A DNA stretch of 64,000 bases, from positions 76,612 to 140,611 of the IMG/VR virus record IMGVR_UViG_3300032225_001769; one strand, 5' to 3'. The number at the start of each line of letters is the position of its first letter. Positions within the stretch are counted from its first letter, which is position 1. Origin of the DNA: a virus (Duplodnaviria; Heunggongvirae; Uroviricota; Caudoviricetes). The position numbers were made by a program, and so were the translations under genes. The notes under the pieces were generated by a model, which saw only the letters and a list, made by a program, of their open reading frames with translations, searched no databases and had not been told where the DNA came from. Shown here one piece after another: positions 8,080-28,803 of the stretch.

Positions 8080-8735
8080 TCACCAACCGAACTTGGTGGC
8101 GCAGACAGGACCGATGCCCCGCTCGATTGACTCTTTAACGGTTAACTCTCTGCCGCAACATGAGCAGGAACCGCTAACCTTACCGTAGCGAATCGCTGCG
8201 GTGAGAGGATCACTGGCGGCGCCCAAGATCACCTCCTTGACTGTATCGGAAAGGCGCGAATCGAGCGCGGTACGTGTTACCTTTCCAAGGTATTTTGGTT
8301 TCATACCATAATCACCTTCCTCAGATTCGGTCTGAGAAGTAATCCAAAGCGCGGTAAGATCCCGATTCGGTTTAACGTTAACACCCTCGAATCGTAGGGT
8401 CAGGCGCTTAGCACCTTTGTTTTTTGCTGCCTCAAAGGCATTAAACAATGCCTCAAATTGCGAGGGTTCGTTAGAATCAACCGCCGCAGACTGCGCTGCA
8501 AAATCGACCGCCAACTTATGCACCCACGCTAACTGTTTGTCAGACAACTTGTCTGCATTATACAATGAACGGGCGAAACTGCCGGGGACAAACTGTAGCA
8601 AATCCCATGCAGTGTCGTCCATGAAATTAGATTCAAAGGTGATAGACTCACCCTTGCAAACTACACTAAACTGGCGGGCGGGAAGCACGGCGCGGGCGAT
8701 CAGGGCGGCGGCGGTGGTGGTAGGGAAGGTCATCG
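8080..8735 (-). CDS. hypothetical protein with C-terminal Cys cluster (zinc-ribbon-like; ~218 aa from MTFPTTTAAALIA...)
   Basis: ORF track 8080..8763 but the first 9 codons are cassette leader; real ATG 8733-8735; ~58% GC versus AT-rich surroundings; ...SGSCSCCGRELT..GIGPVC. Confidence 0.5.
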
Positions 8736-8800
8736 GGTCAGTGGTGGTTGACTTCCTAATCATACATCATCGGCACCGGCACCGTGAGAGGCAAACGGTA
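8736..8800 (-). promoter_or_regulatory. cassette promoter element (subfamily I variant): TATGAT -10, leader ..AAGTCAACCACC.., preceded by terminator hairpin GGGCAGG-ATTACG-CCTGCCC
   Basis: aligned with other cassettes by AAGTCAACC anchor. Confidence 0.45.
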
Positions 8801-8867
8801 GCAACGGATACCTTTTGCCTAATTGGAAAGAATGGGGCAGGATTACGCCTGCCCTGATTGTAACTAA

Positions 8868-9135
8868 TCAGCGGCATCCGTCATGCCATGCTATGCCACA
8901 TGAATTATGGGCAAGCATCTCCTCATCGGAGGGTTCCCATTCACTAGCAATATGGTTAGCAATATCGGCAGGAGTTTTGCGCTCCAGAATACCCTCGATT
9001 GCCAACTCCGTTGCCCATTCATTGTCGCCACACTGGGTATATTCATCATTGAATATAAACCCGTCAATCTGAAACAAACAATCATCAATGATTGCCAAGA
9101 TGTCATCAATGAGAATGACGGGGGCGGAAGTCATG
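8868..9135 (-). CDS. small acidic hypothetical protein (89 aa from MTSAPVILIDD...)
   Basis: track 8868..9230 trimmed to ATG 9133-9135 after cassette leader (..KSTTTDRP are leader codons). Confidence 0.45.
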
Positions 9136-9232
9136 GGTCGGTCGGTGGTGGTGGACTTGCTAATCCTACAGCATCGGAAGCGGTCCCGGTCGGATCGGTG
9201 ACAGAATCGGGACGGTTCCAGAATTGGCACAA
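9136..9232 (-). promoter_or_regulatory. cassette element: dyad box (GTGCCAATTCTGGAAC) + hairpin GTCCCG..CGGGAC + TAGGAT -10 + leader GCAAGTCCACCACCACCGACCGACCC
   Basis: subfamily I consensus. Confidence 0.5.
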
Positions 9233-9239
9233 TGGCGCC

Positions 9240-9430
9240 GCCGGGATGGCAGTTAGCATAAACAATAAAGAATCAATCAGGATTGCAAAGTATAAGAAAT
9301 AACTGTCCTTTGAGGATTGATTGTGATTCGATTAACCACACCACTGACCATAAAGAATCACAATCAATCCTGAAAAGATAGTATAAAGAATAAAGAATTA
9401 CTTTGATTCATTCTCTATTCTTTATATCTT
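9240..9430. repeat. AT-rich non-coding region with 17-bp perfect inverted repeat AGGATTGATTGTGATTC/GAATCACAATCAATCCT (25-nt spacer) and 5 copies of ATAAAGAAT
   Basis: read directly; no plausible ORF. Confidence 0.6.
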
Positions 9431-9435
9431 ATACC

Positions 9436-9594
9436 TCACACTTCATCTTGATTCATTACACTATACGTGTGCATCTTTTCAATGATTGCATAACACGCAT
9501 TATACGATTCCTCATCATCTGTGCATCCCATGTGTGCAAACATCGCATCATAGATTACATCGAGTTCGCGTGAATTGAAGGTGTGAATGTTCAT
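9436..9594 (-). CDS. hypothetical protein (52 aa from MNIHTFNSREL...)
   Basis: track 9436..9651; first ATG at 9592-9594. Confidence 0.35.
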   Translation of the reverse strand: MNIHTFNSRELDVIYDAMFAHMGCTDDEESYNACYAIIEKMHTYSVMNQDEV

Positions 9595-9791
9595 GACTTT
9601 TCTCAATCTTGGTGAGTAGTGTACTATGAAAGATGTGCAGGAGATCCACAAGAATGATAGAAATTAATAATTTTTATCATTCTTTGTGCCTCTTCCATTG
9701 TAGAGAATGATTGAGTTCTCCAGGATTGAGTATAGGGAGCGAAGAAGCGAATCGTGATCATGTGAATTGGGGAGTGAGAGGGTAAAGAATT

Positions 9792-9813
9792 GGGGGGAGG
9801 ATTGTGCCTCCCC
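9792..9813 (-). terminator. terminator hairpin GGGGAGG-CACAAT-CCTCCCC followed by T-rich tract
   Basis: GGAGGC-family hairpin downstream of 9827..9985. Confidence 0.45.
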
Positions 9814-9826
9814 AGAGTATAGACAA

Positions 9827-9985
9827 TCAGTCGTTTTTGTACCTCTCAGCATACACGCGGGAGATGTTTGCCGAGGAAGATGTAAGAATCTCCCCGGCAA
9901 TCACGATCTGTTTATCTTTGCTATTCTTTGCTACCCATACCAATTCTTTAGTCTGAAGATCGCTTGCGACGTTGAAACTTGCCAT
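9827..9985 (-). CDS. small hypothetical protein (52 aa, MASFNVASDLQTKELVWVAKNSKDKQIVIAGEILTSSSANISRVYAERYKND)
   Basis: ATG immediately after cassette 9986-10071; ends before terminator; track ORFs 9664..9900(-) and 9767..10018(+) span the hairpin and look spurious. Confidence 0.35.
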   Translation of the reverse strand: MASFNVASDLQTKELVWVAKNSKDKQIVIAGEILTSSSANISRVYAERYKND

Positions 9986-10071
9986 GAGTCGGTGGTGTGG
10001 TTGACTTCTACAGTATAAAGGCAGGAAAGGGGGAACCGTGATCCCCCTTGTGACACTTATCAGACTGTCAC
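9986..10071 (-). promoter_or_regulatory. cassette element subfamily I: box GTGACAGTCTGATAAGTGTCAC (contains upstream TGA stop) + G5..C5 hairpin + TATACT -10 + leader AAGTCAACCACACCACCGAC
   Basis: near-identical to 10407-10498. Confidence 0.6.
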
Positions 10072-10406
10072 TCTACATACATTCCGCTGGTGAAAGGTAC
10101 AATTTTATATTCTATCTTGAACGCTTCACAGATACTAATCATCCAAACTCCCGCTTTCTGATATACCCTTTCATGACCGCAACCGTGCGCGGAGAGTAGA
10201 GCATTCAACCTCGATTTTGTGGTGGCAGACTGTTTGCCACCATCCCACAAACGAATCCAGGATTCTCCAATCTCGGCAATCTTGTTGCCGTAAAGGTATA
10301 CGCGGGAAACGCAATTCCCCTCTTCATACTCTACACGAGTATTGGAATTCTGCCAGTTGATCCGCTCAATAATGGCAGAATTCATCTCAGATTCGATCTT
10401 ACGCAT
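10068..10406 (-). CDS. hypothetical protein (112 aa)
   Basis: ORF track; stop TGA lies inside dyad box. Confidence 0.5.
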   Translation of the reverse strand: MRKIESEMNSAIIERINWQNSNTRVEYEEGNCVSRVYLYGNKIAEIGESWIRLWDGGKQSATTKSRLNALLSAHGCGHERVYQKAGVWMISICEAFKIEYKIVPFTSGMYVE

Positions 10407-10498
10407 GGGTCGGTCGGTGGTGTGGTTGACTTCTACAGTATAAAGGCAGGAAAGGGGGAACCGTGATCCCCCTTGTGCCAGTTGTCAGACTGTCACAG
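10407..10498 (-). promoter_or_regulatory. cassette element subfamily I (box GTGACAGTCTGACAACTGGCACA + GGGGGATCACGGTTCCCCC hairpin + TATACT + leader)
   Basis: read directly. Confidence 0.6.
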
Positions 10499-10738
10499 CA
10501 TCTCAACCACTCGCAGAATTGTGGTGATCTGCGCGGGAGTCTGATAGTATAGTGGATCTTCCAACATGTTGCCGTTGGGAGTAAACACGGCAACCTCAAA
10601 GGTATCCTGTCCAGTGATACCGTACACGCCGAATCCTTCCGGACCGGCAACAACGGAAACCTGCCAATCGTTGGCAAACGTTACCATTGCCCGCGTCAGG
10701 GGATCAAAGGTAGAAAAAGTGAGATCGGAGAAGATCAT
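10493..10738 (-). CDS. hypothetical protein (81 aa from MIFSDLTF...)
   Basis: track 10493..10801 trimmed; ..NKSTTPDRP are leader codons. Confidence 0.5.
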   Translation of the reverse strand: MIFSDLTFSTFDPLTRAMVTFANDWQVSVVAGPEGFGVYGITGQDTFEVAVFTPNGNMLEDPLYYQTPAQITTILRVVEML

Positions 10739-10800
10739 CGGTCGGTCTGGTGTGGTTGACTTGTTTATTCTACAGGATCGGAACCGGTTCGGAGGGTTCA
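10739..10800 (-). promoter_or_regulatory. cassette element subfamily I variant (palindromic hairpin CCGAACCGGTTCCG, TAGAAT -10, leader AACAAGTCAACCACACCAGACCGACCG)
   Basis: read directly. Confidence 0.5.
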
Positions 10801-10923
10801 AACCTTAAGAAAATCGGGATTGATTGATCAGCAATCCTGATGGGTCAGGGTCTTGACCTAGGGTGCGGGTGCCGTGCTAGGATGGTGAATAGAACCTAAA
10901 TAAATTGAAACTCAATTAGTTAT
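10801..10923 (+). promoter_or_regulatory. upstream region of plus-strand HNH gene with inverted repeat GGGATTGATTGATCAGCAATCC and 16-bp perfect palindrome GGTCAGGGTCTTGACC
   Basis: shares AGGATTGATTG motif with the 9240-9430 region. Confidence 0.35.
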
Positions 10924-11361
10924 ATGAAAGAATTAAAGAATCATCCTGGATATTTTATATCAGAAGATGGAAACTTCTACAACTCAAAAGGTAGACAATT
11001 AAAACAATTTCACAGATGCAAAGGATACTTAGGTGTAAGATTATATAAAACTGCATACTATGTGCATAGGTTAATTGCTGAGGAATTTATACCAAACCCC
11101 AACAATCATTCCCAGGTCAATCATATTGACAAAGATAGAAGTAACAATTGCATTGACAATTTAGAATGGTGCAATCCTCAACAAAATGTAGAGCATTCAT
11201 TGGCAAAAGTTTTTATCATTGAAAGTAAAAATGGTGAAAAATTTGAAGTCTTCAATTTAACAAAATGGTGTAGAGAAAATAACTTAAATATGAAAAACTT
11301 GCATGGTACAAAATCACCAAAATGCCGACAGCATTGGTCGCAAGGTTATCGTATTGTATAG
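10924..11361 (+). CDS. HNH homing endonuclease (HNH_3 type)
   Basis: 145 aa; ..GYLGVRL..YYVHRLIAEEFIPNPNNHSQVNHIDKDRSNNCIDNLEWCN.. ; only plus-strand gene in the region, typical free-standing insertion. Confidence 0.8.
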   Translation: MKELKNHPGYFISEDGNFYNSKGRQLKQFHRCKGYLGVRLYKTAYYVHRLIAEEFIPNPNNHSQVNHIDKDRSNNCIDNLEWCNPQQNVEHSLAKVFIIESKNGEKFEVFNLTKWCRENNLNMKNLHGTKSPKCRQHWSQGYRIV

Positions 11362-11372
11362 GTATAAAAAAG

Positions 11373-11390
11373 GGGAGGCGATTGCCTCCC
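11373..11390. terminator. bidirectional hairpin GGGAGGC-GATT-GCCTCCC (A-tract on + side, so T-tract for minus gene 11408..11664)
   Basis: GGAGGC-family hairpin. Confidence 0.45.
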
Positions 11391-11407
11391 GAGTTGATTA
11401 TACTCAA

Positions 11408-11664
11408 TCACCCAATCAGGGCGGCAATCACTCTATCACGCTTGCGAATCTGGTTTGTTTTAATGAACCAAAGGTCGCGCCGCTTGCCTTTCACTGTGGC
11501 GCCCAGAATCCCGGCGGTTTCCATATCAACCATCACGGCGTGAATGGTGCCCTTGTGGCGCCGGGGATCGAGACCCATGCCCCGCACAAGGTCGGAGCAC
11601 GTTTGCGGTCCGACCTTGATCAGGGAAGCGCGGATGGTGGCGCGGATGATGGTGGGGAAGATCA
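11408..11664 (-). CDS. hypothetical basic protein (85 aa from MIFPTIIRATIRAS...)
   Basis: track 11408..11764 trimmed at cassette leader; GC-rich. Confidence 0.45.
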
Positions 11665-11769
11665 TCGGTCGGTCTGGTGTGGTTGACTTGCTAATCCTAC
11701 AGGATCGGGAACCGGTTAGGGTGCCATTGTGCCACCTTGCAAACCGTCCACCGAACCGTCTCATGGGGG

Positions 11770-11870
11770 GATCGGTGCCTGTAGACTATGAGGACAATCA
11801 GCACCAACGGCAGTAGGGTAACTGCCTGACCAATCCATCGCCACCGAACCTGCAATAAAATAATGGGGTA
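11770..11870. repeat. ~90-bp direct repeat copy R1 (second copy 13740-13830): ..CAGCACCAACGG..N..ATCGCCAC(C/G)GAACCTGCAATAAAATAAT
   Basis: two copies conserved at nucleotide level in different reading frames, so non-coding. Confidence 0.5.
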
Positions 11871-11884
11871 AAAAGTATAAAAAA

Positions 11885-11903
11885 AGGAGGCAGAATTGCC
11901 CCC
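11885..11903 (-). terminator. terminator GGGGGCAATTCTGCCTCC + T7
   Basis: downstream of 11919..12218. Confidence 0.45.
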
Positions 11904-11918
11904 TTTTAATGATAAGTT

Positions 11919-12218
11919 TCAATTCTGCTGGAAGTTGTAAACCATTCGGCGCGATCTGATAGAAACAACTCGCCGCAGATCAAAGGATCTCCAAGCACCG
12001 AAACCTTCCTCCCTGGCGATGTTAAGATCGCGGATGCGGAAAATGTAAGGATCACTAGTAGGATTGCCGGTTCCTTTGACCTCATTACGATCACGGGGAT
12101 TGAAACTAATCCGGCGCATTGTTCCATCTTTCTTCATAAACTGAACGGAAACAATCGTAGAACCTTCACTATAAAGGAAACTACGGACAATCTCAGGATT
12201 GGCGGTGGTGGTGCTCAT
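11919..12218 (-). CDS. hypothetical protein (99 aa)
   Basis: ORF track; cassette 12219-12303 upstream. Confidence 0.5.
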   Translation of the reverse strand: MSTTTANPEIVRSFLYSEGSTIVSVQFMKKDGTMRRISFNPRDRNEVKGTGNPTSDPYIFRIRDLNIAREEGFGAWRSFDLRRVVSIRSRRMVYNFQQN

Positions 12219-12291
12219 TGTCTGGTGTGGTTGATTGCTTGCTAATCCTAGGCGCAGTATGGGGGGATCGAATCCCCCCGTGTGCCAGTTA

Positions 12292-13044
12292 TCAGACTGT
12301 CACAGTCTTTTTCTTACTGTAACCGCTGAACTGTTTGTTAGAACGACGGGCACGGATTGCAGCACCCCAGGATGAACCTTTCGGTTGCGTATTGTGTACA
12401 AGCAAACCGAACGGTTTATCACCGAAACAATGTGAATCATCATGGTCAATCTCCAGACCCTCAGCATTAGCATCCTCTTCAGTCTTGAAGACTTTAGCAT
12501 AACGAGGAAACAAACCCTGCTCGATCATGATATCAAACACGCCACCATAAGATGCGGTAAGATAGAAGTTATCGAGCAGATTCTCTACACCAAACTCTTG
12601 GAAAATATGAAGAGATTTACTATAGCAATAGAACTTCAGATCAGGATTAGACTTTGCAACCTTATTCCATGCTTGAAGATACAACGGATTGAAAAAGTCT
12701 CCGCTCTCATGAATACGAACCAATTCCGTATTGCGTGTGCGAAAGTGTTGCAAAGCAGTGTTAGTCTGATCGGCAGTATAATCCACACCGAGGCGCAGAT
12801 AGTCAACAATAGTCCCAAGATTCTCGGCGCGACTATTGAATGCGCCACTATACTGCACCTCTCCACTAGCAGCAAAGCAGCGGAATTGAGTGTGCTCGCC
12901 ATCACGAATGGTGCGCTTGCCATTGTTATCAACAACTGCCCAAGACTTACACTCTAATGCACCGGGGCAAGTCTTTCCAGCGGGAAGATTGAAGATCAGG
13001 GTTTGCTTGCCAAGTTTGGCGTTACCCTTGGTGAAATTAAGCAT
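12292..13044 (-). CDS. hypothetical Cys/His-rich protein (250 aa), enzyme-sized
   Basis: ORF track; GC-rich; cassette 13045-13134 upstream; function not recognised. Confidence 0.5.
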   Translation of the reverse strand: MLNFTKGNAKLGKQTLIFNLPAGKTCPGALECKSWAVVDNNGKRTIRDGEHTQFRCFAASGEVQYSGAFNSRAENLGTIVDYLRLGVDYTADQTNTALQHFRTRNTELVRIHESGDFFNPLYLQAWNKVAKSNPDLKFYCYSKSLHIFQEFGVENLLDNFYLTASYGGVFDIMIEQGLFPRYAKVFKTEEDANAEGLEIDHDDSHCFGDKPFGLLVHNTQPKGSSWGAAIRARRSNKQFSGYSKKKTVTV

Positions 13045-13136
13045 CGGTCGGTCGGTGGTGGTGGACTTGTTTATCCTACAGGCAGGAAGGGGGGAACCGT
13101 GATCCCCCCTGTGACACTTAACAAACTGTCACATTA

Positions 13137-13607
13137 TCACTTCCAGAGTTTTTCTGCAATGAGACGATCTACCAAAACCTGAGCAAGTTTGCCACAATGA
13201 TCACATGCTTTTGCATACTTAATCTCAGACTTGAGACTATACTTACTAGACCGCAGATCATACACACCAAACTTATAGCGATAAACTGCACTTACTGCCT
13301 TTAGAAGTTGGCGCTTGTGAAGATCACCTTTTGCCAACTTATAGGCAGGAATAAGATAAACAAAGTTGTTGCACTTAAGAGACAGTTTCAGTTTGTCAAC
13401 AATAAATGTTGCACCTTTTGCACCAAAGTAAGGTGTAAGTTCAACCTCCAGAAAAGCATTGAATGGTGCCAATTCTACCGGTTCGTTAGAAACAACCGGA
13501 GCAACTGGTTGTGCCAGAGTGTTAGAAACCATGCCCAAGATCTGAGCAATTTGATCAATTTGTCCCTCAACTTGGTTGCCGTTGATAACAAGTTGGATGG
13601 TGTTCAT
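13137..13607 (-). CDS. hypothetical protein (~156 aa from MNTIQLVINGNQVEG...)
   Basis: track 13137..13793 trimmed; degenerate cassette 13608-13712. Confidence 0.45.
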   Translation of the reverse strand: MNTIQLVINGNQVEGQIDQIAQILGMVSNTLAQPVAPVVSNEPVELAPFNAFLEVELTPYFGAKGATFIVDKLKLSLKCNNFVYLIPAYKLAKGDLHKRQLLKAVSAVYRYKFGVYDLRSSKYSLKSEIKYAKACDHCGKLAQVLVDRLIAEKLWK

Positions 13608-13739
13608 TGGTCTGGGGTGGTGGTCGGCAGCGGTGGTGTGCCGATGGCGTAATGATGCCACACCAGAACCGACCAGATCCAGCGGTCTTGTGCCATTGCT
13701 CCAACTGTCACAGCAGCACGGTTTCTGATCGGTTTCATG

Positions 13740-13830
13740 GTATTTTAATTGGACAACCAGCACCAACGGGGGAAAGGTATCCCTACTGAACAATACATCG
13801 CCACGGAACCTGCAATAAAATAATTATCAC
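13740..13830. repeat. direct repeat copy R2 (see 11770-11870)
   Basis: shared 30-mer CATCGCCAC(G/C)GAACCTGCAATAAAATAAT. Confidence 0.5.
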
Positions 13831-13961
13831 AGAATGTTAAAAAAATGGATCAGGCACCACCCCGATCCACATTAACCACTCACCTATGCTATAATTATCT
13901 GTTATCTTTCGCGCTGGGTAACTTTAACATTCAGCGATGGCAAACCCCTTCCATCTTTATC

Positions 13962-14153
13962 TTACAATTCTACCATCCAGTCCGTGTCTTTGTCAAGATG
14001 TACCCAGAAGTGATTGCGTCCGTTCATGGATGTAAGGAACACGCGATTACCCAGGTGTTGCTCAATGATACACTCGCTGTCTGCGTCCATGATGTTAGCA
14101 AACCTGTTCTTTGCCTTGCGGGAGAGTGGTGTGACAAATGCGGTGTTGTTCAT
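13962..14153 (-). CDS. hypothetical protein (63 aa)
   Basis: ORF track; co-oriented; overlapping + ORF 13845..14195 considered less likely. Confidence 0.4.
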   Translation of the reverse strand: MNNTAFVTPLSRKAKNRFANIMDADSECIIEQHLGNRVFLTSMNGRNHFWVHLDKDTDWMVEL

Positions 14154-14196
14154 GCGATTGCCTGCGAATGCCTGTATTGTACTGTGAATGTGTGAG

Positions 14197-14247
14197 TCTC
14201 GTCGAGATGTAGTGTGCCACTTGTGCGACTGTCACATCTCGACGAGA
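14197..14247. repeat. 13-bp perfect inverted repeat TCTCGTCGAGATG / CATCTCGACGAGA flanking a dyad-box copy; same CTCG(A/T)CGAGAT motif as iterons at 20.8 kb
   Basis: read directly. Confidence 0.55.
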
Positions 14248-14265
14248 GTATAATCTCGACTAGAG

Positions 14266-14391
14266 TTATTTCCTCAGGGGAGAATTAAAGTAACGGCGAA
14301 AAGAAGTAAGAACAATGATGCCCGTCGAAACAATACCAACCATACCAAGGAAGGTAACAGCATCACCAGTGAAGTTAAGAGTGTCAGGCAT
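14266..14391 (-). CDS. small membrane peptide (41 aa, MPDTLNFTGDAVTFLGMVGIVSTGIIVLTSFRRYFNSPLRK)
   Basis: ATG overlaps upstream stop (ATGCCTGA); hydrophobic; shorter form of track ORF 14266..14472. Confidence 0.3.
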   Translation of the reverse strand: MPDTLNFTGDAVTFLGMVGIVSTGIIVLTSFRRYFNSPLRK

Positions 14392-14533
14392 TTTCAAAAA
14401 GCGAGTGAATTTTGTTGCGAATGGAGTAAACTTGGTCAGAATCTTCTTCATCATCATCCAGACCATGACCAACTAGATTGTAGATCATGTCCCATTCTTC
14501 ATTGGTGAAGAACTCTATGATGGTGTCGGGCAT
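14384..14533 (-). CDS. small acidic protein (49 aa from MPDTIIEFF...)
   Basis: track 14384..14566 trimmed; ITKSTKRTPS are leader codons. Confidence 0.4.
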   Translation of the reverse strand: MPDTIIEFFTNEEWDMIYNLVGHGLDDDEEDSDQVYSIRNKIHSLFENA

Positions 14534-14620
14534 TGAAGGTGTCCGTTTGGTTGACTTTGTAATCATAGGGCACCTAGAGGGGATTCTAGGTGCCTCTGGG
14601 ACAGTTCTCAGACTGGCACA
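14534..14620 (-). promoter_or_regulatory. cassette element subfamily II: box + hairpin GGCACCTAGA-ATCCCC-TCTAGGTGCC + CCCTATGAT -10 + leader TACAAAGTCAACCAAA
   Basis: the same ~85-bp unit recurs at 15040-15125, 15633-15717, 16115-16201, 16606-16696, 18672-18753 and 19534-19623. Confidence 0.6.
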
Positions 14621-15039
14621 GTGTTCAGATTCTGAAGAGTAAAGTATGCTTCAATCAGATTCTCCACACTGAGAATTGTTCCATCTTTGCTATAAAAAGT
14701 CACACCAGATTCCATACCAGTTCTGCTACTGTAGTTTGCACTATCAATACGCATCACTTTGCTGGTCATAATAGGAAGAAACTGATCGAGCAACCAATCC
14801 CATACATCAGTATTACTATTGCATTCTTCAGTATCAATCTCAACTATAATCTTATCAGCAACTTGACGAACATAAGCATTGAAATCTAGGTCCAGTTCCC
14901 CATCAACTTCACCAAACTCATCAAAGATGAAGTTCGGTTCGCTGATACAACGCTTTGCAAGACCATCAAGAAAAGACTCAAGATTGAAGTTTTCCACTAC
15001 AGCACATGTAGCAGTTGAAGTGAAATGAGTGTAAGACAT
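14608..15039 (-). CDS. acidic hypothetical protein (143 aa from MSYTHFTST...)
   Basis: track 14608..15081 trimmed (MPYDYKVNQRTPQP is leader). Confidence 0.5.
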   Translation of the reverse strand: MSYTHFTSTATCAVVENFNLESFLDGLAKRCISEPNFIFDEFGEVDGELDLDFNAYVRQVADKIIVEIDTEECNSNTDVWDWLLDQFLPIMTSKVMRIDSANYSSRTGMESGVTFYSKDGTILSVENLIEAYFTLQNLNTVPV

Positions 15040-15116
15040 TGGTTGGGGGGTCCTTTGGTTGACTTTGTAATCATAGGGCACCTAGAGGGGATTCTAGGTG
15101 CCGCTGTGCCAGTTGT

Positions 15117-15632
15117 TCAGGTGTCTAACAATGCCTTAAGGGACTTAATTGTATCTTTATATTTCTTCAATTCTTCCTCAAGTTCTTTAATCTTGAGGTC
15201 TTTATCATCTTGAGGTTCTTCTTTTTTCTCAAGAATGGTTCCAATTAAGTTAGTATCCAGAAGGTTAGCACCCTCAAGGTTAGCACCCTCAAGGTTAGCA
15301 CCCTCAAGGATAGCACGCCAAAGGTTAGCACCCCAAAGGTTAGCACCCCAAAGGTTAGCACCCCGAAGGTCAGCATTCATAAGGTTAGCATCCTGAAGGT
15401 CAGCACCCCGAAGGTCAGCATCCTCAAGGTTAGCACCCTCAAGGTTAGCACCCCGAAGGTAAGCACCCCGAAGGTAAGCATTCACAAGGTCAGCATCCTC
15501 AAGGTTAGCACCCACAAGGTTAGCACCCCGAAGGTTAGCACCCCGAAGGTTAGCACCCACAAGGTTAGCACCCCAAAGGTTAGCACCCCAAAGGTAAGCA
15601 CCCGGTTCGATTTTGTATCCGTTGACGATCAT
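15117..15632 (-). CDS. pentapeptide-repeat protein with C-terminal charged coiled-coil tail
   Basis: 171 aa from [13 protein letters not shown]; >25 tandem A(N/D)LxG pentapeptides ([15 protein letters not shown]..), DNA-level 15-nt repeats 15240-15600. Confidence 0.8.
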
Positions 15633-15715
15633 GGTGAGATTCCTTTGGTTGACTTTGTAATCATAAGGCACCTAGAGGGGATTCTAGGTGCCGCTGTGCC
15701 AGTTGTCAGAGTGTC

Positions 15716-15982
15716 CTACCAGGTATAGTCTTTGAACAGTTCTTCTGCATTAGCATCAGGATCAAACATTACATAATCAACATCAGGAAATTGAGTATGA
15801 ACCAATCTCAGTAAATCTACCAAACAGTGCATACCTTCGTTCAAATATGTGTCCCACATTCCAGAGTCAGCAATTACCAAAGAAAGTGTATCACTGGAAA
15901 GATAAGAAATCTTATCAATCTTTGCGGCCTCCAAGGTGTGCAAATGAATGGTGGAGAGTGTAAGAACCTTAGAAAATTCCAT
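15716..15982 (-). CDS. hypothetical protein (88 aa)
   Basis: ORF track. Confidence 0.45.
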   Translation of the reverse strand: MEFSKVLTLSTIHLHTLEAAKIDKISYLSSDTLSLVIADSGMWDTYLNEGMHCLVDLLRLVHTQFPDVDYVMFDPDANAEELFKDYTW

Positions 15983-15985
15983 GAT

Positions 15986-16114
15986 TCAGAAGTCGATGTT
16001 GGAGTTGAGTTTGGCATTGAAAATAGATTCATCTTCTTCATCTTCCCACAATTCGGGAATGTCAAAGATTTCACCGGGAGCATCAGCGATTTCGATCCAG
16101 AGAGTGTCTTCCAT
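15986..16114 (-). CDS. small acidic protein (42 aa, MEDTLWIEIADAPGEIFDIPELWEDEEDESIFNAKLNSNIDF)
   Basis: ATG after cassette 16115-16201; stop TGA 1 nt before next ATG; track ORFs 15874..16155(-) and 15827..16144(+) are other frames. Confidence 0.3.
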   Translation of the reverse strand: MEDTLWIEIADAPGEIFDIPELWEDEEDESIFNAKLNSNIDF

Positions 16115-16197
16115 GTGGTTGGGGGTGTGTGGTTGACTTTGTAATCATAGGGCACCTAGAGGGGATTCTAGGTGCCGCTGTGACAGTTCTTAAAGTG

Positions 16198-16605
16198 TCA
16201 CCTTAGGTAAAGATAAGAACCTGCCCAGTCTGCACGTTGATACATCTCAGTGCGAGACGCATCATTCATTAGATTGTAGCGGATTCCCTTTGCCGGTGCC
16301 TGCCATGATGCAGGTTTGAATACATCACCCGTCTTCAGATCCACAAAAGCATGAACACTTTTACTACCATAAGAGGTAATGTGAGTAATCTTGGCATACT
16401 TCTTGCCATTAGTGTAAACGAATTGGTCTACACCTTCACCCTCGGAGAGTTTCTCAATGCACTCTCGGTGATACTGTACACTCTCACCTTTCTCAATAGA
16501 ATGGCGGTGATGCTGAATTGAATAAGACTGATAGTTTGTGCGAAGAACCTCACACATCTCTTCAATCTTCTCAATCACTGGAGAAACCGTGGCAGTGGCA
16601 GTCAT
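16198..16605 (-). CDS. hypothetical protein (135 aa from MTATATVSPV...)
   Basis: track trimmed at leader. Confidence 0.5.
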   Translation of the reverse strand: MTATATVSPVIEKIEEMCEVLRTNYQSYSIQHHRHSIEKGESVQYHRECIEKLSEGEGVDQFVYTNGKKYAKITHITSYGSKSVHAFVDLKTGDVFKPASWQAPAKGIRYNLMNDASRTEMYQRADWAGSYLYLR

Positions 16606-16691
16606 CGGTTGAATGGTGTCTTTGGTTGACTTTGTAATCATAGACGCACCTAGAGGGGATTCTAGGTGCCTCTGGGACAGTTCTTAAAGTG

Positions 16692-16818
16692 TCACGGTAG
16701 GCAGTGATAGTCTGGAGTGATCATGTTAGCAGTGCTTCTCATGAATGATGCTGTACCTTCTCTAACTGATGAATTCGCCAGAAAGAAGATTACAAAAACC
16801 AGAAGAATGAGTTTCATT
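16692..16818 (-). CDS. small secreted/membrane peptide (41 aa, MKLILLVFVIFFLANSSVREG...)
   Basis: signal-peptide-like N-terminus; stop TGA inside dyad box. Confidence 0.3.
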
Positions 16819-16883
16819 GGTTGACAGAATGCTGAAAGTACAGTAGACTAGGTTTGTCGCTTTTGAGATCAGGTTGTAGAAGC

Positions 16884-17273
16884 TTAGAGAGTCACAGGAA
16901 CAGGAATTGCAACAATCTCTGGAGTAGTACCGTGAAGATCATAACAAACCCATTCATCATTCCTAAAGATATAAGCATACTCTTCACCATCCATGAGATA
17001 ACCAATCACAGATGAATTTGTACGAGGTTCACAAACCTGTCCACGTTCAGAATAGTATAGAGGACGATACTCCATAGTTTCCTGATCCCAATTGCGATCT
17101 GTCCAAAGAGAACTAATGTCACCACCAGCAATCAGTTCTGATGCTTTCTCATAAGAATTGAAATGTTCTTGAAGTACTACACCATTGAACTCAGGATAAT
17201 TATCCCAATGACAATAGACGGAAAGAACACTATCATCGGGAAGTAAAATTCCGATTCTTCCTCTTGTCGCCAT
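16884..17273 (-). CDS. hypothetical protein (129 aa)
   Basis: ORF track; cassette 17274-17365. Confidence 0.5.
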   Translation of the reverse strand: MATRGRIGILLPDDSVLSVYCHWDNYPEFNGVVLQEHFNSYEKASELIAGGDISSLWTDRNWDQETMEYRPLYYSERGQVCEPRTNSSVIGYLMDGEEYAYIFRNDEWVCYDLHGTTPEIVAIPVPVTL

Positions 17274-17316
17274 GATGTTGTGGATGTGTGGTTGACTCTC
17301 TTAAGATACAGGAGTT

Positions 17317-17895
17317 TCAGTGAGGTGTGGGTGAGTCTTGTGTCACTTCTTCAACTGTCACAAGGTCTTTGTATCGTTTCCATTTTCCATAGGCTATATT
17401 TTTAATTCCCGATGTGGAGTATCCATTGTCAACTGCCCATCTTTGTAGTCCACCTATAATAATTTCTTTACCATTACTATAAACTATTCTCCAAATTTTT
17501 GCTCTTGGATTATTTGCACCTTTATATTGTTTATTTCTTTCTATTGCCATTTTTCTTTGAATTTCTACTTGATGTGGAGGGCAAATTCCTTTCCTACCTT
17601 TATTCCAAGCGGGAACACCTTTCATACCTTCTCCGCCATCACTCATATTTCTCAAAATACCAGTTCCTAAATCTTTTCTACCAAAAACATTAATCATATA
17701 AATTTCATGTTTATATGCCTCCTCTTCTGTTAAGTTTTGTTTGAGGATAAGGATTCTATCTTTCTCTGGAGGAGTAAAGTATCCTCCTTTACTTTTACTT
17801 CTCCAGTGTTTCACATATGCCCGATATCCTTTTCCCTTACCAATATAATAAGGTGTCTTATCTTCACGCAAGTAAGCGTAAGTGTAGTATTCCAT
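17317..17895 (-). CDS. GIY-YIG homing endonuclease (Seg-like)
   Basis: 192 aa; N-terminal YYTYAYLREDKTPYYIGKGKG GIY-YIG motif; paralog of 21213..21812. Confidence 0.8.
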   Translation of the reverse strand: MEYYTYAYLREDKTPYYIGKGKGYRAYVKHWRSKSKGGYFTPPEKDRILILKQNLTEEEAYKHEIYMINVFGRKDLGTGILRNMSDGGEGMKGVPAWNKGRKGICPPHQVEIQRKMAIERNKQYKGANNPRAKIWRIVYSNGKEIIIGGLQRWAVDNGYSTSGIKNIAYGKWKRYKDLVTVEEVTQDSPTPH

Positions 17896-17932
17896 CTACT
17901 TTGTTTGTTTGGCAGAAATATTTATACAAGAA

Positions 17933-17952
17933 AGGAGGCATTTCTGCCTCCT
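17933..17952 (-). terminator. hairpin GGAGGCA-TTTC-TGCCTCC
   Basis: GGAGGC family; lies upstream of the GIY-YIG gene on the transcribed strand, so downstream of 17993..18232. Confidence 0.4.
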
Positions 17953-17992
17953 ATTCTTTGCTCGCAGTCGCCAAACAAACAAGCATTAATAT

Positions 17993-18232
17993 TTAGAGTG
18001 GCACACAGGCACCGATACGAATCTGCTCTCGACTTGTTTCAGCAGGATAATTATTGATACTATGAATTCCCCAGTAATACCTGCGAACAGTACGCTCACT
18101 GAGATTCATTGTTTCGGCAATCTGTTCGTAGGCCATACCAACGTACCTGCAAAGATTGACGTATTTAATATTCTCTAGTGCTTCGTGAGTTGCATGAACA
18201 GTGGAGAATTCTGAAACTGTTGGGATTTTCAT
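17993..18232 (-). CDS. small HTH DNA-binding protein (sigma-70 region-4-like helix-turn-helix)
   Basis: 79 aa; ..YEQIAETMNLSERTVRRYYWGIH..; paralog of 19611..19853 (shared C-terminus IR(I/L)GACV(P/T)L). Confidence 0.5.
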   Translation of the reverse strand: MKIPTVSEFSTVHATHEALENIKYVNLCRYVGMAYEQIAETMNLSERTVRRYYWGIHSINNYPAETSREQIRIGACVPL

Positions 18233-18255
18233 GATGTGGGGAGTTTCTTTGTGAA

Positions 18256-18432
18256 TCAGAAATGAATGATAGGGTAATCAACATCAACTACATCATATCT
18301 GGCGCCATTAATAAACTCTAAACCTACCTGATAATATTCATCATGATTTTCACGATCATAAACACAAACATCAGTGTTCAGTTGTTCTTCTGTGAGTTGC
18401 TGTAACTGTTGCAGGAGTTCTTTGTAAATCAT
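18256..18432 (-). CDS. hypothetical protein (58 aa from MIYKELLQQ...)
   Basis: track trimmed; 23 nt upstream of HTH gene. Confidence 0.4.
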   Translation of the reverse strand: MIYKELLQQLQQLTEEQLNTDVCVYDRENHDEYYQVGLEFINGARYDVVDVDYPIIHF

Positions 18433-18509
18433 GAGGTGTCTCAGGAACAAATGTAATGTAGCAGGGCACCAGCATCAGATCCAGTGCCGCTGTGACAGTT
18501 CTTATGGTG

Positions 18510-18671
18510 TCACCTGATCAGATCAACAGAAACATTCTTCAGATTCAATCCTTGTAGTTGAGTAGTCACACGATTGCAAATAAGAGTCGGTGCAGTCTTT
18601 GCTTTGGACTTCTCATACCAGATCGTTGTGCATCCATCATTAGTCTCAACTCGGATTCTGTATTCTTTCAT
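18510..18671 (-). CDS. hypothetical protein (53 aa from MKEYRIRVETNDG...)
   Basis: track 18510..18707 trimmed at leader. Confidence 0.4.
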   Translation of the reverse strand: MKEYRIRVETNDGCTTIWYEKSKAKTAPTLICNRVTTQLQGLNLKNVSVDLIR

Positions 18672-18741
18672 GAGGTGTCTTTGGTTGACTTTGTAATCAT
18701 AAGGCACCTAGAGGGGATTCTAGGTGCCTCTGGGACAGTTC

Positions 18742-19209
18742 TCAGAGTGTCACAAGATGACTGTAATCTGGAGCATTTTGATGCTTTACAATGACTTTTT
18801 CACCACCATAAGTTTCACCCCAGACTTCACCCCCTTCACCTTTCCATACAATGTAACCTTTAGAGAGTGTAGAGATTGCCTTCAGAAAGAGTTCCTCCTG
18901 ACCAGTCTTGGAATCATAACCATGAATGTGAAGATTTCCATTCTCAACAATCATAGTATCAAAACCTAATTGGTTTAGAATCTCTTCGGCAGTCTTACAC
19001 TCTTCATGATAGTTCCATGCCATCCAAGAGAACCAGCAATTCTTATCGGGTCCAAGATTAGGTGCATTATCTTTACCAGGCCAAGAACCTCCACGCTTTG
19101 TACTGTTCGGAACAGTGAAGTTCAGTTGACACATTGCTTCATAAGCAGCAGGAAGATTCTCGGCAGGAATCGTAAAGGTGCTTTCTTCAATGTAAACGTT
19201 GTAACCCAT
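18742..19209 (-). CDS. hypothetical protein (155 aa from MGYNVYIEEST...)
   Basis: track trimmed. Confidence 0.5.
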   Translation of the reverse strand: MGYNVYIEESTFTIPAENLPAAYEAMCQLNFTVPNSTKRGGSWPGKDNAPNLGPDKNCWFSWMAWNYHEECKTAEEILNQLGFDTMIVENGNLHIHGYDSKTGQEELFLKAISTLSKGYIVWKGEGGEVWGETYGGEKVIVKHQNAPDYSHLVTL

Positions 19210-19290
19210 GATGTGTTTGTGGTTTCGTTTGGTTGACTTGTTAAGTATGGCAGGGATCTTATGAGAACACAAGACCCCTTGTGTCAGTTG

Positions 19291-19533
19291 TTAGACTGTC
19301 ACACTCTCCAGGAGTTCTTCGATAGTTTCATCATCATAACAACAGGAGATTTGCTCCAGAATGTCATTGGGAGATTGAATCCCCAGATTCTCCACAATAG
19401 TATCATAAGCAAATTGCATCAGACATTTAGTATCCATGTCATCCACCATTCGTTCAGCATAGTTCTCAATGAACTGCTGAATCTGATCGCTGGTGAAAGA
19501 ATTGAACTTAGCGGTGAGTTGATCGGTGTTCAT
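19291..19533 (-). CDS. acidic hypothetical protein (80 aa)
   Basis: ORF track. Confidence 0.45.
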   Translation of the reverse strand: MNTDQLTAKFNSFTSDQIQQFIENYAERMVDDMDTKCLMQFAYDTIVENLGIQSPNDILEQISCCYDDETIEELLESVTV

Positions 19534-19610
19534 TGGTTGAGTGGTGCTTTGATTGACTTTGTAATCATAAGGGCACTGGAGGCGATCCTAGTGCCCTCTG
19601 GTGCCAGTTC

Positions 19611-19853
19611 TCAGAGTGTCACACAGGCACCCAGACGAATCTGAGTATAAGAGTCGTGTGGTGCATTATTCATATGATGAATTCCATAGTAATAGCGGCG
19701 AACATTCGTCTCACTCATATCAAAGTGTTCTGCGATTCTGTTAAAGGAATGAGTGGGATATTCCTTCCTATAAAGATTAATCATCTCACACCAGAACTTT
19801 GCATTCTTGGTGCAATTGATGCTTTTCTCGGAATGAACCTTAACTTGTCGCAT
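19611..19853 (-). CDS. small HTH DNA-binding protein, paralog of 17993..18232
   Basis: ..FNRIAEHFDMSETNVRRYYYGIHH..IRLGACVTL. Confidence 0.5.
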   Translation of the reverse strand: MRQVKVHSEKSINCTKNAKFWCEMINLYRKEYPTHSFNRIAEHFDMSETNVRRYYYGIHHMNNAPHDSYTQIRLGACVTL

Positions 19854-19934
19854 GGTGGTGTCGTGTGGTTGACTTGTTCAGTATTGCAGGGATCTCATGA
19901 GAACACAAGATCCCCGGTGACGGTTTCTAGAGTG

Positions 19935-20174
19935 TCACATCAGGTCTTCATACTCTCCAGAATCCATTGCGTCTTCCAGTGCGGTCACCAGACCATCGAA
20001 GTCTTCGGATGCAGGAAGAACACCAGTGAGAATGTTGACCAGATCACCATACTCTTCGCGGAGTTCATTCAAATACTCTTTGCGGTTGGCGTAACCATTG
20101 TCGGTGTAGATGCTCATGATCGGTTCGGGGTGGTGAACGAGTCCAACATAAGGCATGAGAACCGGATGAGTCAA
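19935..20174 (-). CDS. acidic hypothetical protein (79 aa)
   Basis: ORF track; TATAAT hexamer upstream. Confidence 0.45.
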   Translation of the reverse strand: MTHPVLMPYVGLVHHPEPIMSIYTDNGYANRKEYLNELREEYGDLVNILTGVLPASEDFDGLVTALEDAMDSGEYEDLM

Positions 20175-20639
20175 TAGGCAGCGACCAGTTGCAGAATTGG
20201 CACATTATATCCAGATACTAAAATATGACTCCTAAGTGATAAGAATTGAAAAAGCAATTCTATCAGGAATCTTCCCGTCTTTTTGATTTGATTGTATCAC
20301 TAAGTTATTGTTTCCTGTTTTATTATGCCAGAGTCAGGACTAAACTCTCTCCTTTATAATATAAGTTAAAAGCACTTATTTCTTATATCTGTCAGATTGT
20401 TACCTCTTGATCCTGAAGGAGAGTTCAAGTGCTGCTCTGTGATATAATAATCTAAGTGCTATTATTTATACAAGATTAGTACAAATCTGCATAATCCTTT
20501 ACACTGGCATGAACATCTTCGTCTCCTTGAAGATCTAGAATGTCCTTCCAGTTCATGTCTTCCACGTTTAGATCATCATAACACTCAATATCAAGTGTAA
20601 CTCGTACCAGGCGCTTCTGTGCTAACATGATTCATGTGC

Positions 20640-23123: not shown

Positions 23124-23207
23124 TTTCAGTCTCCGTTGTGTACGAATGTATTATAAGGAATCACAGGGACTTTATGAGTGTCCCTGTGCCAGTTGTTAAA
23201 GTGTCCT
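23124..23207 (-). promoter_or_regulatory. cassette element subfamily III: box GGACACTTTAACAACTGGCACAG + hairpin GGGAC-N9-GTCCC + CCTTATAAT -10; near-identical copy at 23700-23774
   Basis: read directly. Confidence 0.6.
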
Positions 23208-23693: not shown

Positions 23694-23773
23694 CAGGTTT
23701 CTTTGTCTAAGAATGTATCATAAGGAATCACAGGGACTTTATGAGTGTCCCCGTGCCAGTTGTTAAAGTGTCC

Positions 23774-24733: not shown

Positions 24734-24893
24734 GAGAGATCGTTTGCGTTTGGTTGACTTGTTCATTATAAGGCACAAGAAGGTGAATCAGTGACTACCT
24801 TGTGCCAGTTGATCAAGTGGTCTCAATCTTCGTAATCATCCTCATTATCTCTACAATATACATTTGCCTTTGTCTTTCTAGGATCTAATGGTT

Positions 24894-25619: not shown

Positions 25620-25635
25620 CTTTGTCCTTTTTATT

Positions 25636-26043
25636 TTATTTATCAATAAGTTCGTCAAGTAAGGACTCAAACTCAGGATCAATCAGAGGTTCTTCATATT
25701 TTTCACAATAAACATAGATAATCTCCGGAACACTGCCAAAATATCCTTGTAACCATGGACACAACCACAGTTTCATTGAACTCAGTTTATCTGTATAATA
25801 TGAACCAGATTTATCAGTCTCAATCAATTTGATTTCGGTAATTGCACGATCAAATGAATCAGTATCGAGATAGAAATTGATCTTATCACCCGATACTGGT
25901 TTAATGTTATTCAATACTTCAAAATACCAATCAATCACAGTTTCAGTACCATTATATAATGCTTCTGCGACTGTATTCTGGTGTTCATGATCGAATGCCC
26001 AAATGCCATATTCAGTTTTATATGCAGTGATTTTAAGTTTCAT
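25636..26043 (-). CDS. hypothetical protein (135 aa)
   Basis: ORF track. Confidence 0.5.
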   Translation of the reverse strand: MKLKITAYKTEYGIWAFDHEHQNTVAEALYNGTETVIDWYFEVLNNIKPVSGDKINFYLDTDSFDRAITEIKLIETDKSGSYYTDKLSSMKLWLCPWLQGYFGSVPEIIYVYCEKYEEPLIDPEFESLLDELIDK

Positions 26044-26134
26044 AAGATTATAAAGTTTATCTTTGTATTATACAAGAAGTAACGACCACATGAAGGGGTC
26101 TTGTGCCAGTTCGTCAAGTGTCCTTTAGGATGTT

Positions 26135-27108: not shown

Positions 27109-27135
27109 AAGTCATCATGCCCTTGTGCCAGTTGA

Positions 27136-28722: not shown

Positions 28723-28803
28723 TTGTTTTTTTGTTGACCTACCTATCATAAGGCATCAGACTTCACTATGATAAGGTGAGTGTGCCAGTTGTTCAGGTGT
28801 CCT

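Follow-up and report, generated by a model that had tools for sequence, protein, structure and literature searches.

Putative composite promoter/hairpin cassettes with a phased upstream box in the small-gene region of a T4-like cyanomyovirus

The 64,000-nucleotide stretch analysed here (the window; positions 76,612 to 140,611 of IMG/VR record IMGVR_UViG_3300032225_001769) belongs to a T4-like freshwater cyanomyovirus akin to Synechococcus phage S-SRM01 (Kyanoviridae), and contains between its small genes about 43 copies of an intergenic repeat, which constitute one family of composite promoter/hairpin cassettes in a hyperplastic region and probably act both in gene control and in gene shuffling by homologous recombination. 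Since the minus strand carries nearly all genes from ~5 to 60 kb, the repeats must be read on that strand, where a unit consists of the upstream stop codon, a box, a spacer that may contain a hairpin, a hexamer of the -10 type, a short leader and the ATG, in this order. Judged by its gene order, the window represents the hyperplastic small-gene region that extends from a helicase gene to the baseplate wedge genes and would be transcribed from the minus strand. Cultured-phage DNA matches only 13% of the 8-21 kb segment, the match (77% identity) being S-SRM01, a 241-kb freshwater T4-like cyanomyovirus of the Kyanoviridae, in which the matching segment is a run of small hypothetical genes up to the baseplate wedge genes.

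The box is 21 nt long and partly palindromic, with the pattern GACA(C/G)T-N5-AACTG(G/T)CACA common to all 40 box-bearing copies. Its degenerate form (GACASTNNNNNAMYKGKCAC) has 36 matches in the window against 0.13 expected, all of them on the coding (minus) strand, which places the repeats far above chance and bears out the original prediction that they are real. The set of 40 units was built from the box alone, and the hexamer was then found 28-31 nt onward. These 40 minus-strand units lie at 10.0-53.5 kb, and every one has a TAnnnT-type hexamer at this distance (29-30 nt in 33/40), which is a canonical TAnnnT in 33 of the 40. Three further subfamily I promoters (8764, 9168 and 10772), which have no correctly placed box, bring the total to ~43. 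Both uniting features, the box and its fixed distance of 28-31 nt from the -10, were overlooked in the original prediction.

The phasing recurs outside the window. The IMG/VR database was searched with the pattern box + 28-31 nt + TATNNT, which matched at least 120 contigs, and the figures for IMG/VR loci given here (389 boxes, 381 elements and 159 hairpins) come from the 120 matches listed. An unbiased test of the spacing is provided by the 389 boxes in these loci that were not used in fetching them, 97 of which have a -10-like hexamer at offset 29 and 66 at offset 30, over a background of ~2 per offset. An open reading frame (ORF) of at least 40 aa begins within 120 nt in 302 of the 381 elements, and 20-29 nt past the -10 in 219 of these 302. 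A weakly conserved cAT is found ~6-8 nt past the hexamer, the position expected for the transcript start. In the window, the distance from box to -10 is equal in spacers that fold (subfamily II, -18 kcal/mol) and in those that do not (33729, 34290 and 35153; 0 kcal/mol).

No -35 element is conserved in the sequence logo of the IMG/VR-locus elements. A scan of 8-27 kb with a generic sigma-70 consensus found 55 canonical -35/-10 pairs against 45 expected, and a terminator consensus scan of the same segment found 19 terminator-like sites against 14 expected; as neither is an enrichment, the units are neither canonical -35/-10 promoters nor classical terminators. They resemble activator- and UP-element-dependent promoters (CRP class I, NtcA-type and alpha-CTD UP) in their conserved upstream element, poor -35 and fixed helical phase, with the box spanning ~-43 to -63, which is UP-element territory. 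The respective consensus sequences are TGTGA-N6-TCACA for CRP, GTA-N8-TAC for NtcA and an AT-rich stretch for the UP element, and to our knowledge the box fits none of them. Assignment of the box as a sigma-54 -24 element, a CRP site or an NtcA site was rejected on spacing and on consensus. The two arms of the box are only partly complementary (GACACT and ACTGGC form 4/6 pairs in most copies) and this asymmetry is itself conserved, which argues for recognition of the sequence rather than for an RNA stem. By visual inspection, the leaders of subfamilies I and II are rich in C and A and lack a GGAG-type motif; AGGA or GGAG is present in some other copies.

The upstream stop codon lies inside or abuts the box in 22/40 units, with all three reading frames represented. 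Several unrelated proteins (encoded at 12292-13044, 16884-17273, 18742-19209, 19291-19533, 19611-19853 and 23196-23693) end in a common C-terminal tail (..VTV, ..VTL or ..RTL), as the first arm of the box (GTG ACA STC TGA) supplies their last codons. This observation suggests that the 3' ends of the genes may be fixed by recombination within the box.

The hairpin is G+C-rich and an optional insert in the spacer. The spacer folds at -7 kcal/mol or below in 21/40 units, compared with 14% of shuffled sequences, and 19 units are without a hairpin; the folding spacers comprise 15/18 at 10-20 kb and 6/22 beyond. The stems of subfamily I consist of G5-6/C5-6. Across the window, S-SRM01, three IMG/VR contigs (L002, L127 and L129) and the listed IMG/VR loci, 43 distinct full-spacer hairpins with unrelated stems occupy this one slot, which indicates selection on structure and not on sequence. 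A T-run (at least 5 T in 8 nt) follows the hairpin in 78/159 of the listed IMG/VR elements, and these hairpins are predicted to be true intrinsic terminators. Judged from its position, the hairpin would most likely attenuate read-through or protect the upstream transcript at its 3' end.

Units are found throughout the relatives of this phage. S-SRM01 has 13 copies per 28 kb and contig L002, which is 70-99% identical to the window, has 18 per 15 kb; units are present in L127 and L129 too. The marine isolate S-RIM32 contains several in the same region, just upstream of gp25/gp6, while Syn9 has sparse box + -10 composites (about 4, for example before gene 32, gp73 and gp90). Among the matches listed, 100/120 IMG/VR loci encode homologs of window proteins, and together with the relatives this makes the units a family-wide feature of that genome region.

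Exchange between copies is documented by comparison with L002. The upstream side of L002 element 3991 (box and end of the pentapeptide gene) is identical to the element 15125 of the window, while its leader, ATG and coding sequence, on the downstream side, agree fully with window element 14617, and the 508 bp between these two window elements, with the gene 14608-15039, are absent from L002. Element 3991 is thus an exact chimera of 15125 and 14617, and the copies do recombine. Its junction may lie anywhere in ~50 nt of shared sequence, with no fixed crossover point. The 129-aa gene and the DUF7326 gene have changed places between the window and L002, and the 155-aa and DUF7717 genes are preceded by different element types, depending on the genome. 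In front of the 129-aa gene, the elements of the window and of S-SRM01 are 86% identical, the proteins only 42%. Identity to L002 is a mosaic with breaks at elements 14233 and 16199: the 14.2-16.1 kb block reaches 87-99%, the 13.0-13.8 kb stretch 70-79%. The whole 14.2-16.1 kb block is interpreted as recently shared with the L002 lineage. Purifying selection on element 15715 (99% identical to L002 element 4536, with 75% identity of the protein) was considered and rejected, as four-fold sites of its gene are 100% identical and the whole block was recently shared; the 15117-15632 protein differs from its L002 ortholog only by indels of pentapeptide-repeat units (identity 75-82%), and its gene contains ~23 copies of a 15-nt unit (15261-15603).

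Cassettes of this general kind are known from other T4-like phages (RB49/phi1, T4/PST and KVP40/nt-1) as promoter-early stem-loops (PeSLs; Arbiol et al. 2010, PMC2839356; Comeau et al. 2014, PMC4122927). A PeSL is a promoter-terminator cassette that begins at the upstream stop codon and has its stem-loop mostly between or overlapping the promoter boxes; PeSLs have proven promoter and terminator activity and recombine to delete, insert or circularise single ORFs (PMC2839356, PMC4122927). The cyanophage units share with them the size of ~80 nt, the intergenic location in hyperplastic regions of a T4-like phage, the start at the upstream stop codon, the predicted promoter with an overlapping G/C stem-loop, and the small, often orphan gene whose ATG closes the unit. 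They lie between small genes from a helicase gene to the baseplate genes and, as in PeSLs, have stable stem-loops in their spacers (21/40), are densest where gene content varies most, and contain the junctions of indels and replacements, namely the chimera, the 508-bp indel, the reordered genes and the mosaic breaks. They differ from PeSLs in having, instead of an AT-rich upstream segment around the stop codon, a specific quasi-palindromic 21-nt box at a rigid 29-30 nt from the -10, and also in the absence of a conserved -35, in the many window copies (including those of subfamilies I and II) without an evident Shine-Dalgarno sequence, and in the hairpin, which is optional and in the window mostly without a T-run. 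The host is also different, being cyanobacterial, and the cyanophage units are known from sequence alone, whereas the promoter, terminator and mini-circle activities of PeSLs are experimental.

Dense PeSLs were not seen in a study of cyanophage S-PM2 (PMC4503421), and in the literature covered no report of PeSLs in cyanophages was found. The units are a non-random feature, and their organisation fits best with a cyanomyovirus version of the regulatory and recombination cassettes of PeSL type. Elements of this kind were already known, and it is the phased box, the breadth within the Kyanoviridae and the clean chimeric junction that deserve attention. The chimeric element demonstrates that single accessory genes are gained and lost at the units, so that the PeSL shuffling model, drawn from phages of enterobacteria and vibrios, now extends to the cyanomyoviruses, which are ecologically dominant.

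In the favoured explanation, the box and the -10 would together form a promoter for the host RNA polymerase, with a sequence-specific contact at ~-43 to -63 substituting for recognition of a -35. Use of the unmodified host RNA polymerase is the accepted model for cyanomyoviruses, and how they start transcription without the T4 proteins Alt, Mod, MotA and AsiA, like their early and middle control, is still described as unclear (PMC2984593). According to the same review, early genes of S-PM2 and Syn9 have a sigma-70-like upstream motif. The units resemble these early (and putative middle) motifs in carrying a -10-type hexamer upstream of small early-region genes; the review describes a sigma-70-like motif only. 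The hairpin may attenuate or terminate read-through from upstream, or stabilise the 3' end of the upstream transcript. As the comparison with relatives demonstrates, the units also serve as sites of homologous recombination at which single-gene cassettes are inserted, deleted and reordered; the tight groups Ia and II would have arisen by local duplication and homogenisation of neighbours, together with block exchange among phage lineages, and the GC-rich segment would have been filled from the phage gene pool.

Several points weigh against this explanation. Of the window hairpins, only 2/21 are followed by 5 or more T within 8 nt of the stem, so that they are at best attenuators or RNA-end stabilisers and differ from a terminator in this respect. 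The promoters 8764, 9168 and 10772 have no correctly placed box, which is therefore not indispensable. Promoter use, the start site, the temporal class (early or middle) and termination are all deduced from the anatomy of the units. The GC content at second codon positions (GC2) is raised in the genes of the GC-rich segment (0.42 vs 0.34), which fits a distant GC-richer gene pool. Finally, the box may already figure as an early or middle motif in the genome papers of Syn9, S-PM2 or S-CRM01 or in the Syn9 transcriptome paper; a full-text literature search with the box sequence returned only unrelated primer sequences, and the S-SRM01 paper mentions no promoter or motif.

A bolder version of this explanation is tentatively put forward, with rather low confidence: the phased box could define an undescribed, Kyanoviridae-wide class of promoters, in which a putative sequence-specific factor (of the host, delivered by the virion, or an early phage protein) replaces -35 recognition, and in which the unit also acts as portable homology for the assembly of accessory genes one at a time. 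The box might possibly borrow a signal of a host regulon, in view of an identical arrangement upstream of ctpA-like genes in filamentous cyanobacteria. The composite pattern has 78 matches in bacteria against ~17 expected under uniform base composition, and these reduce to a few orthologous groups, phage-like contigs binned into metagenome-assembled genomes, and roughly the chance number of singletons. In one group, box + 31 nt + TATNNT stands upstream of ctpA-like S41 protease genes in ~25 filamentous cyanobacteria (loci L136-L199), and in another the same arrangement precedes the gene of a 131-137 aa zinc-ribbon membrane protein in Acidobacteria (Blastocatellia; loci L133, L162 and L192). 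Both could reflect chance plus orthologous conservation, or a shared host factor. With its phased box and -10 before dozens of early-region genes, in at least 120 related contigs, the unit offers a concrete and testable promoter model, and an aid to the annotation of transcription units in cyanophage metagenomes.

The repeats had been divided by the original prediction into three subfamilies that follow position and the GC content of the cargo genes. In a pairwise comparison of the 40 units, each taken from its box to 20 nt beyond the -10, the groups at 80% identity are {10069, 10494, 13130}, the seven copies of subfamily II (14617, 15125, 15715, 16199, 16693, 18751 and 19620) and the pairs {19300, 19936} and {23205, 23772}. 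The other 26/40 units are singletons on a continuum at 80% and merge almost totally at 60%, so that subfamily III, proposed for 23-53 kb, is only the undifferentiated and heterogeneous rest of the family and not a cluster. Element 12301 joins {10069, 10494, 13130} at 70% identity, and the only tight groups with multiple copies are therefore Ia (3-4 copies) and II (7 copies). The proposed link with position is real to the extent that similarity between elements declines with distance (Mantel-type rho -0.28, 0/5000 permutations). The leader described for subfamily I (TAGGAT/TAGAAT/TATACT ... AAGTCAACC/AAGTCCACC ACC.. ATG) does occur eight times at 8.7-13.1 kb, and its hairpin GGGGGATCACGGTTCCCCC three times, plus one variant. 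The predicted seven or more near-identical copies of subfamily II are also found, six of them being 84-100% identical over 81 nt (one of which scores only 65% ungapped because of a 1-nt indel), and copy 19620 being a 75-79% variant. The range assigned to this subfamily, 14.5-19.9 kb, holds these seven copies, but elements 17359, 18511, 19300 and 19936 as well.

The near-identity within subfamily II had been attributed to recent amplification or gene conversion. Homogenisation is supported by elements 16199 and 19620, which are 86-91% identical to their own paralogs and 82-83% to the elements of the orthologous L002 genes, and by the chimeric L002 element 3991; L002 also has its own identical neighbouring pair (5274 and 5598), and both this pair and the closeness of paralogs fit local homogenisation or duplication. 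A recent event private to this genome is not supported, because the identical type II hairpin occurs at two orthologous positions in L002 and the 14.2-16.1 kb block is shared at 87-99%. Elements of types I and II stand at orthologous positions in L002, L127, L129 and S-SRM01, and must therefore predate this genome.

The GC content of the genes, as length-weighted means of total GC and of GC at third codon positions (GC3), falls from 47.6%/49% at 8.1-13.7 kb to 41.2%/37.5% at 14.0-20.2 kb and 37.3%/30% at 20.5-53.4 kb, with 30-36%/20% in the flanking structural genes (all contrasts between neighbouring regions p<0.004). The gradient anticipated by the original prediction is thus confirmed, while the figure of 55-60% given for the cargo of subfamily I was overstated, since only one solid ORF (11408-11665, 58.5%) exceeds 55% and most are at 41-52%. 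Elements with a higher GC tend to precede genes with a higher GC3 (rho 0.40, p 0.011). The GC-rich island occupies a syntenic position in S-SRM01, L002, L127, L129 and marine S-RIM32, where it adjoins the baseplate genes gp25/gp6: the S-SRM01 genome has 35.6% GC and its syntenic 9-16 kb segment 42-48%, and the island reaches 47-49% in L002, 47-58% in L127 and L129, and 45-52% directly before gp25/gp6 in S-RIM32. Island orthologs that are 65-74% identical as proteins have the same GC. From this conservation, the GC-rich segment is best regarded as a regional property of the phage family, not as a recent host capture, and its presence by the baseplate genes is a caution against equating a local excess of GC with recent host-gene capture.

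The cargo families include Kyano_Gp96, GP88, DUF7717, DUF7326, a pentapeptide-repeat protein and DUF6011, whose homologs are phage genes, as well as HNH and GIY-YIG-like homing endonucleases. Homologs of Kyano_Gp96 occur in 388 cyanophage records; the DUF6011 protein has its best matches in phages of GC-rich hosts (Pseudomonas, Caulobacter and Mycobacterium). The 85-aa protein of the 58.5% GC gene has 302 metagenomic homologs, and the contigs inspected are syntenic phage contigs with the same island; this one protein, when tested against the 185,579 bacterial and archaeal species genomes of the Genome Taxonomy Database (GTDB), had no relative there. For two cargo proteins, no match was found in the phage collection.

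Two origins fit the island, an old one in a GC-richer phage pool or local maintenance. That the gradient reflects local selection or bias rather than ancestry, for example host-like codon use before the phage tRNAs act, or GC-biased repair at a recombination hot spot, is conceivable and is entertained here only with reserve. The position and level of the island are kept across diverged relatives with genomes of 35-40% GC, the island coincides with the densest and most recombining elements, and cyanomyoviruses are otherwise low in GC, with tRNAs that offset the mismatch with the host (PMC3152331). Such maintenance is opposed by the GC at four-fold sites of conserved residues, which is only 0.22-0.45 in the island orthologs, and by the raised GC2; taken together, these two indicate that part of the GC signal is amino-acid composition.

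The complete original scheme, with three discrete subfamilies, a recently amplified and homogenised subfamily II and a subfamily I carrying a recent capture of high-GC genes from a Synechococcus-like host or a phage, is doubtful. It draws support from the tightness of Ia and II, from the paralogous likeness of 16199 and 19620, from GC that is higher at all three codon positions in region I, from the phages of GC-rich hosts matched by DUF6011, and from the correlation of element GC with downstream GC3. It is contradicted by the lack of a cluster III, by type I and II elements at orthologous positions that are older than this genome, by an island that is syntenic in five relatives including marine S-RIM32 with equal GC of orthologs, by the absence of bacterial relatives for the one cargo protein tested, and by Kyano_Gp96 and GP88, which are common cyanophage genes. 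A phage source for the GC-rich cargo thus finds weak support, while the synteny, the phage homologs and the lack of a bacterial relative of the one protein tested speak against a Synechococcus-like host and against a recent date.

An action at the RNA level, in which box and hairpin would be a signal for processing, antitermination or 3'-end protection (nut-like or an RNase target) and the -10 would be incidental or secondary, is unlikely. All copies are on the coding strand, the box overlaps the upstream stop codon, the 3' part of the upstream transcript comprises box and hairpin, and the structure of the hairpin is kept while its sequence is not, as such a signal would have it. However, the sharp 29-30 nt phasing persists in hairpin-less copies, and this counts against an RNA signal, which needs no phase with a hexamer further on; the distance to the ATG is short and fixed, the arms of the box pair poorly, and no unit matched Rfam 15 at the gathering score, the only match in the window being a tRNA gene (61440-61514, minus strand).

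The units share with integron cassettes the single-gene modules bounded by imperfect palindromes, and with the morons of lambdoid phages the modules with their own promoter and terminator. Unlike integron cassettes, each unit has its own promoter 5' of the gene, and unlike both systems the exchange looks homologous between repeats rather than site-specific or illegitimate. Selfish or site-specific mobile repeats (MITE/REP-like, or attC-like integron sites with a recombinase) are very improbable, as their many copies, inverted-repeat character, location at cassette boundaries and indels, and the comparison of such cassettes with integrons by the PeSL authors, are outweighed by the single orientation in phase with -10 and ATG throughout, the lack of target-site duplications or terminal inverted repeats around the units, the L002 junction within ~50 nt of shared sequence as in homologous exchange, the absence of an integrase or transposase among the 20 cargo proteins scanned, and the recombination of T4-like phages via short homologies (PMC2839356).

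The individual elements, all on the minus strand and designated, where they have a box, by its 5' end, are as follows. Among the promoters without a placed box, that at 8734..8764 (-10 TATGAT at 8759-8764) precedes the DUF6011 gene (8080-8733); the subfamily I leader at 9135..9231 (-10 TAGGAT at 9163-9168) has a box in inverted orientation at 9211-9231 and precedes the gene 8868-9134; and the subfamily I leader at 10739..10772 precedes the gene 10493-10738, with an HNH gene (10924-11361, plus strand) at the expected place of the box. Element Ia is represented at 9986..10069 (box 10049-10069, hairpin GGGGGATCACGGTTCCCCC, -10 TATACT at 10012-10017, gene 9827-9985), at 10407..10494 (96% identical to 10069; box 10474-10494, -10 at 10437-10442, Kyano_Gp96 gene 10068-10406) and at 13045..13130 (box 13110-13130, -10 TAGGAT at 13073-13078, GP88 gene 12292-13044). 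The element type of 13130 also precedes the GP88 ortholog in L002, L127, L129 and S-SRM01. An Ia-like element with hairpin GGGGGGATTCGATCCCCCC and -10 TAGGAT is found at 12219..12301 (box 12281-12301, gene 11919-12218), and at 11666..11748 a subfamily I leader whose box (11728-11748) is degenerate and whose hairpin is weak, before the gene 11408-11665 (GC 58.5%). A divergent element with -10 CATCAT, 85% identical in S-SRM01, lies at 13608..13709 (box 13689-13709, gene 13137-13607), and a hairpin-less one with TCTCGACGAGA palindromes at 14154..14233 (gene 13962-14153).

The copies of subfamily II are located at 14534..14617 (hairpin GGCACCTAGAATCCCCTCTAGGTGCC, -10 TATGAT, gene 14384-14533), 15040..15125 (gene 14608-15039), 15633..15715 (pentapeptide-repeat gene 15117-15632), 16115..16199 (genes 15986-16114 and 15716-15982), 16606..16693 (DUF7717 gene 16198-16605) and 18672..18751 (gene 18510-18671), with the variant at 19534..19620 (DUF7326 gene 19291-19533). 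The cargo gene 14608..15039 (minus strand) encodes 143 aa and makes up, with one subfamily II element, the 508-bp indel absent from L002. Interspersed are the hairpin-less element at 17274..17359 (gene 16884-17273), 86% identical to S-SRM01 element 14885, whose box lies within the 3' end of a GIY-YIG-like ORF (17317-17895, minus strand), and an element with its own hairpin GGCACTGGATCTGATGCTGGTGCC at 18433..18511 (gene 18256-18432). The pair 19300/19936 comprises 19210..19300 (hairpin GGGGTCTTGTGTTCTCATAAGATCCC, gene 18742-19209) and 19854..19936 (gene 19611-19853 of a small helix-turn-helix (HTH) protein), while the pair 23205/23772 (89% identical) comprises 23124..23205 (gene 22392-23123, GTG start) and 23694..23772 (gene 23196-23693). 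Twenty more elements with box + 28-30 nt + -10, heterogeneous and mostly hairpin-less, are spread over 24734..53476, with the 5' ends of their boxes at 24821, 26122, 27144, 28801, 30525, 30981, 31407, 33118, 33729, 34290, 34808, 35153, 35798, 38604, 41544, 44864, 46826, 49602, 52319 and 53476. The last of these has a true hairpin followed by TTTTT, and the unit at 52299-52319 is inside the 3' end of a 408-aa helicase-like gene (52171-53397), where it would be an internal promoter for the gene 52028-52168.

The HNH endonuclease cassette (10780-11400) has 31% GC, is on the opposite strand and occupies the box position of promoter 10772; a comparable site in S-SRM01 also holds an HNH gene, and homing endonucleases seem to insert at cassette junctions. 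Hairpins of the form GGAGGC-loop-GCCTCC adjoin both homing-endonuclease genes of the region (11374-11389 and 17934-17951), and related G/C hairpins with T-runs, which would act as conventional terminators, occur in the 8-14 kb segment at 8835-8854, 9794-9813, 11882-11907 and 13845-13870. Two genes encode sigma-70-region-4-like HTH proteins, 17993-18232 (79 aa) and 19611-19853 (80 aa), and look like paralogs by visual comparison; the former matches sigma-70 region 4 (E=2e-6), while the latter is without a Pfam match. Both proteins are candidate early-region DNA-binding regulators, with no evidence tying them to the box.

The palindrome TCTCG(A/T)CGAGA has 8 matches in the window against 0.34 expected, with clusters of 3 and 4 copies (14197-14264 and 20796-20910), and is found at orthologous spacers of S-SRM01 and L002; it looks like a putative operator of a dimeric regulator. 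The segment 9240-9800 is an AT-rich gap in the GC-rich island and contains a 16-bp perfect inverted repeat (GGATTGATTGTGATTC...GAATCACAATCAATCC), the loop of which (TTAACCACACCACTGACC) is like the leader of subfamily I, and this repeat may be the leftover of a rearranged element. At the end of the repeat region, 20200-20480 is AT-rich with ~280 nt free of ORFs, and from ~20371 it aligns with L002 at ~71%. A 78-nt tandem repeat with 4 copies (93% matches) is located at 41603-41925 within the gene 41510-42079, and repeats of 12 and 42 nt occupy the end of the window (63812-63999).

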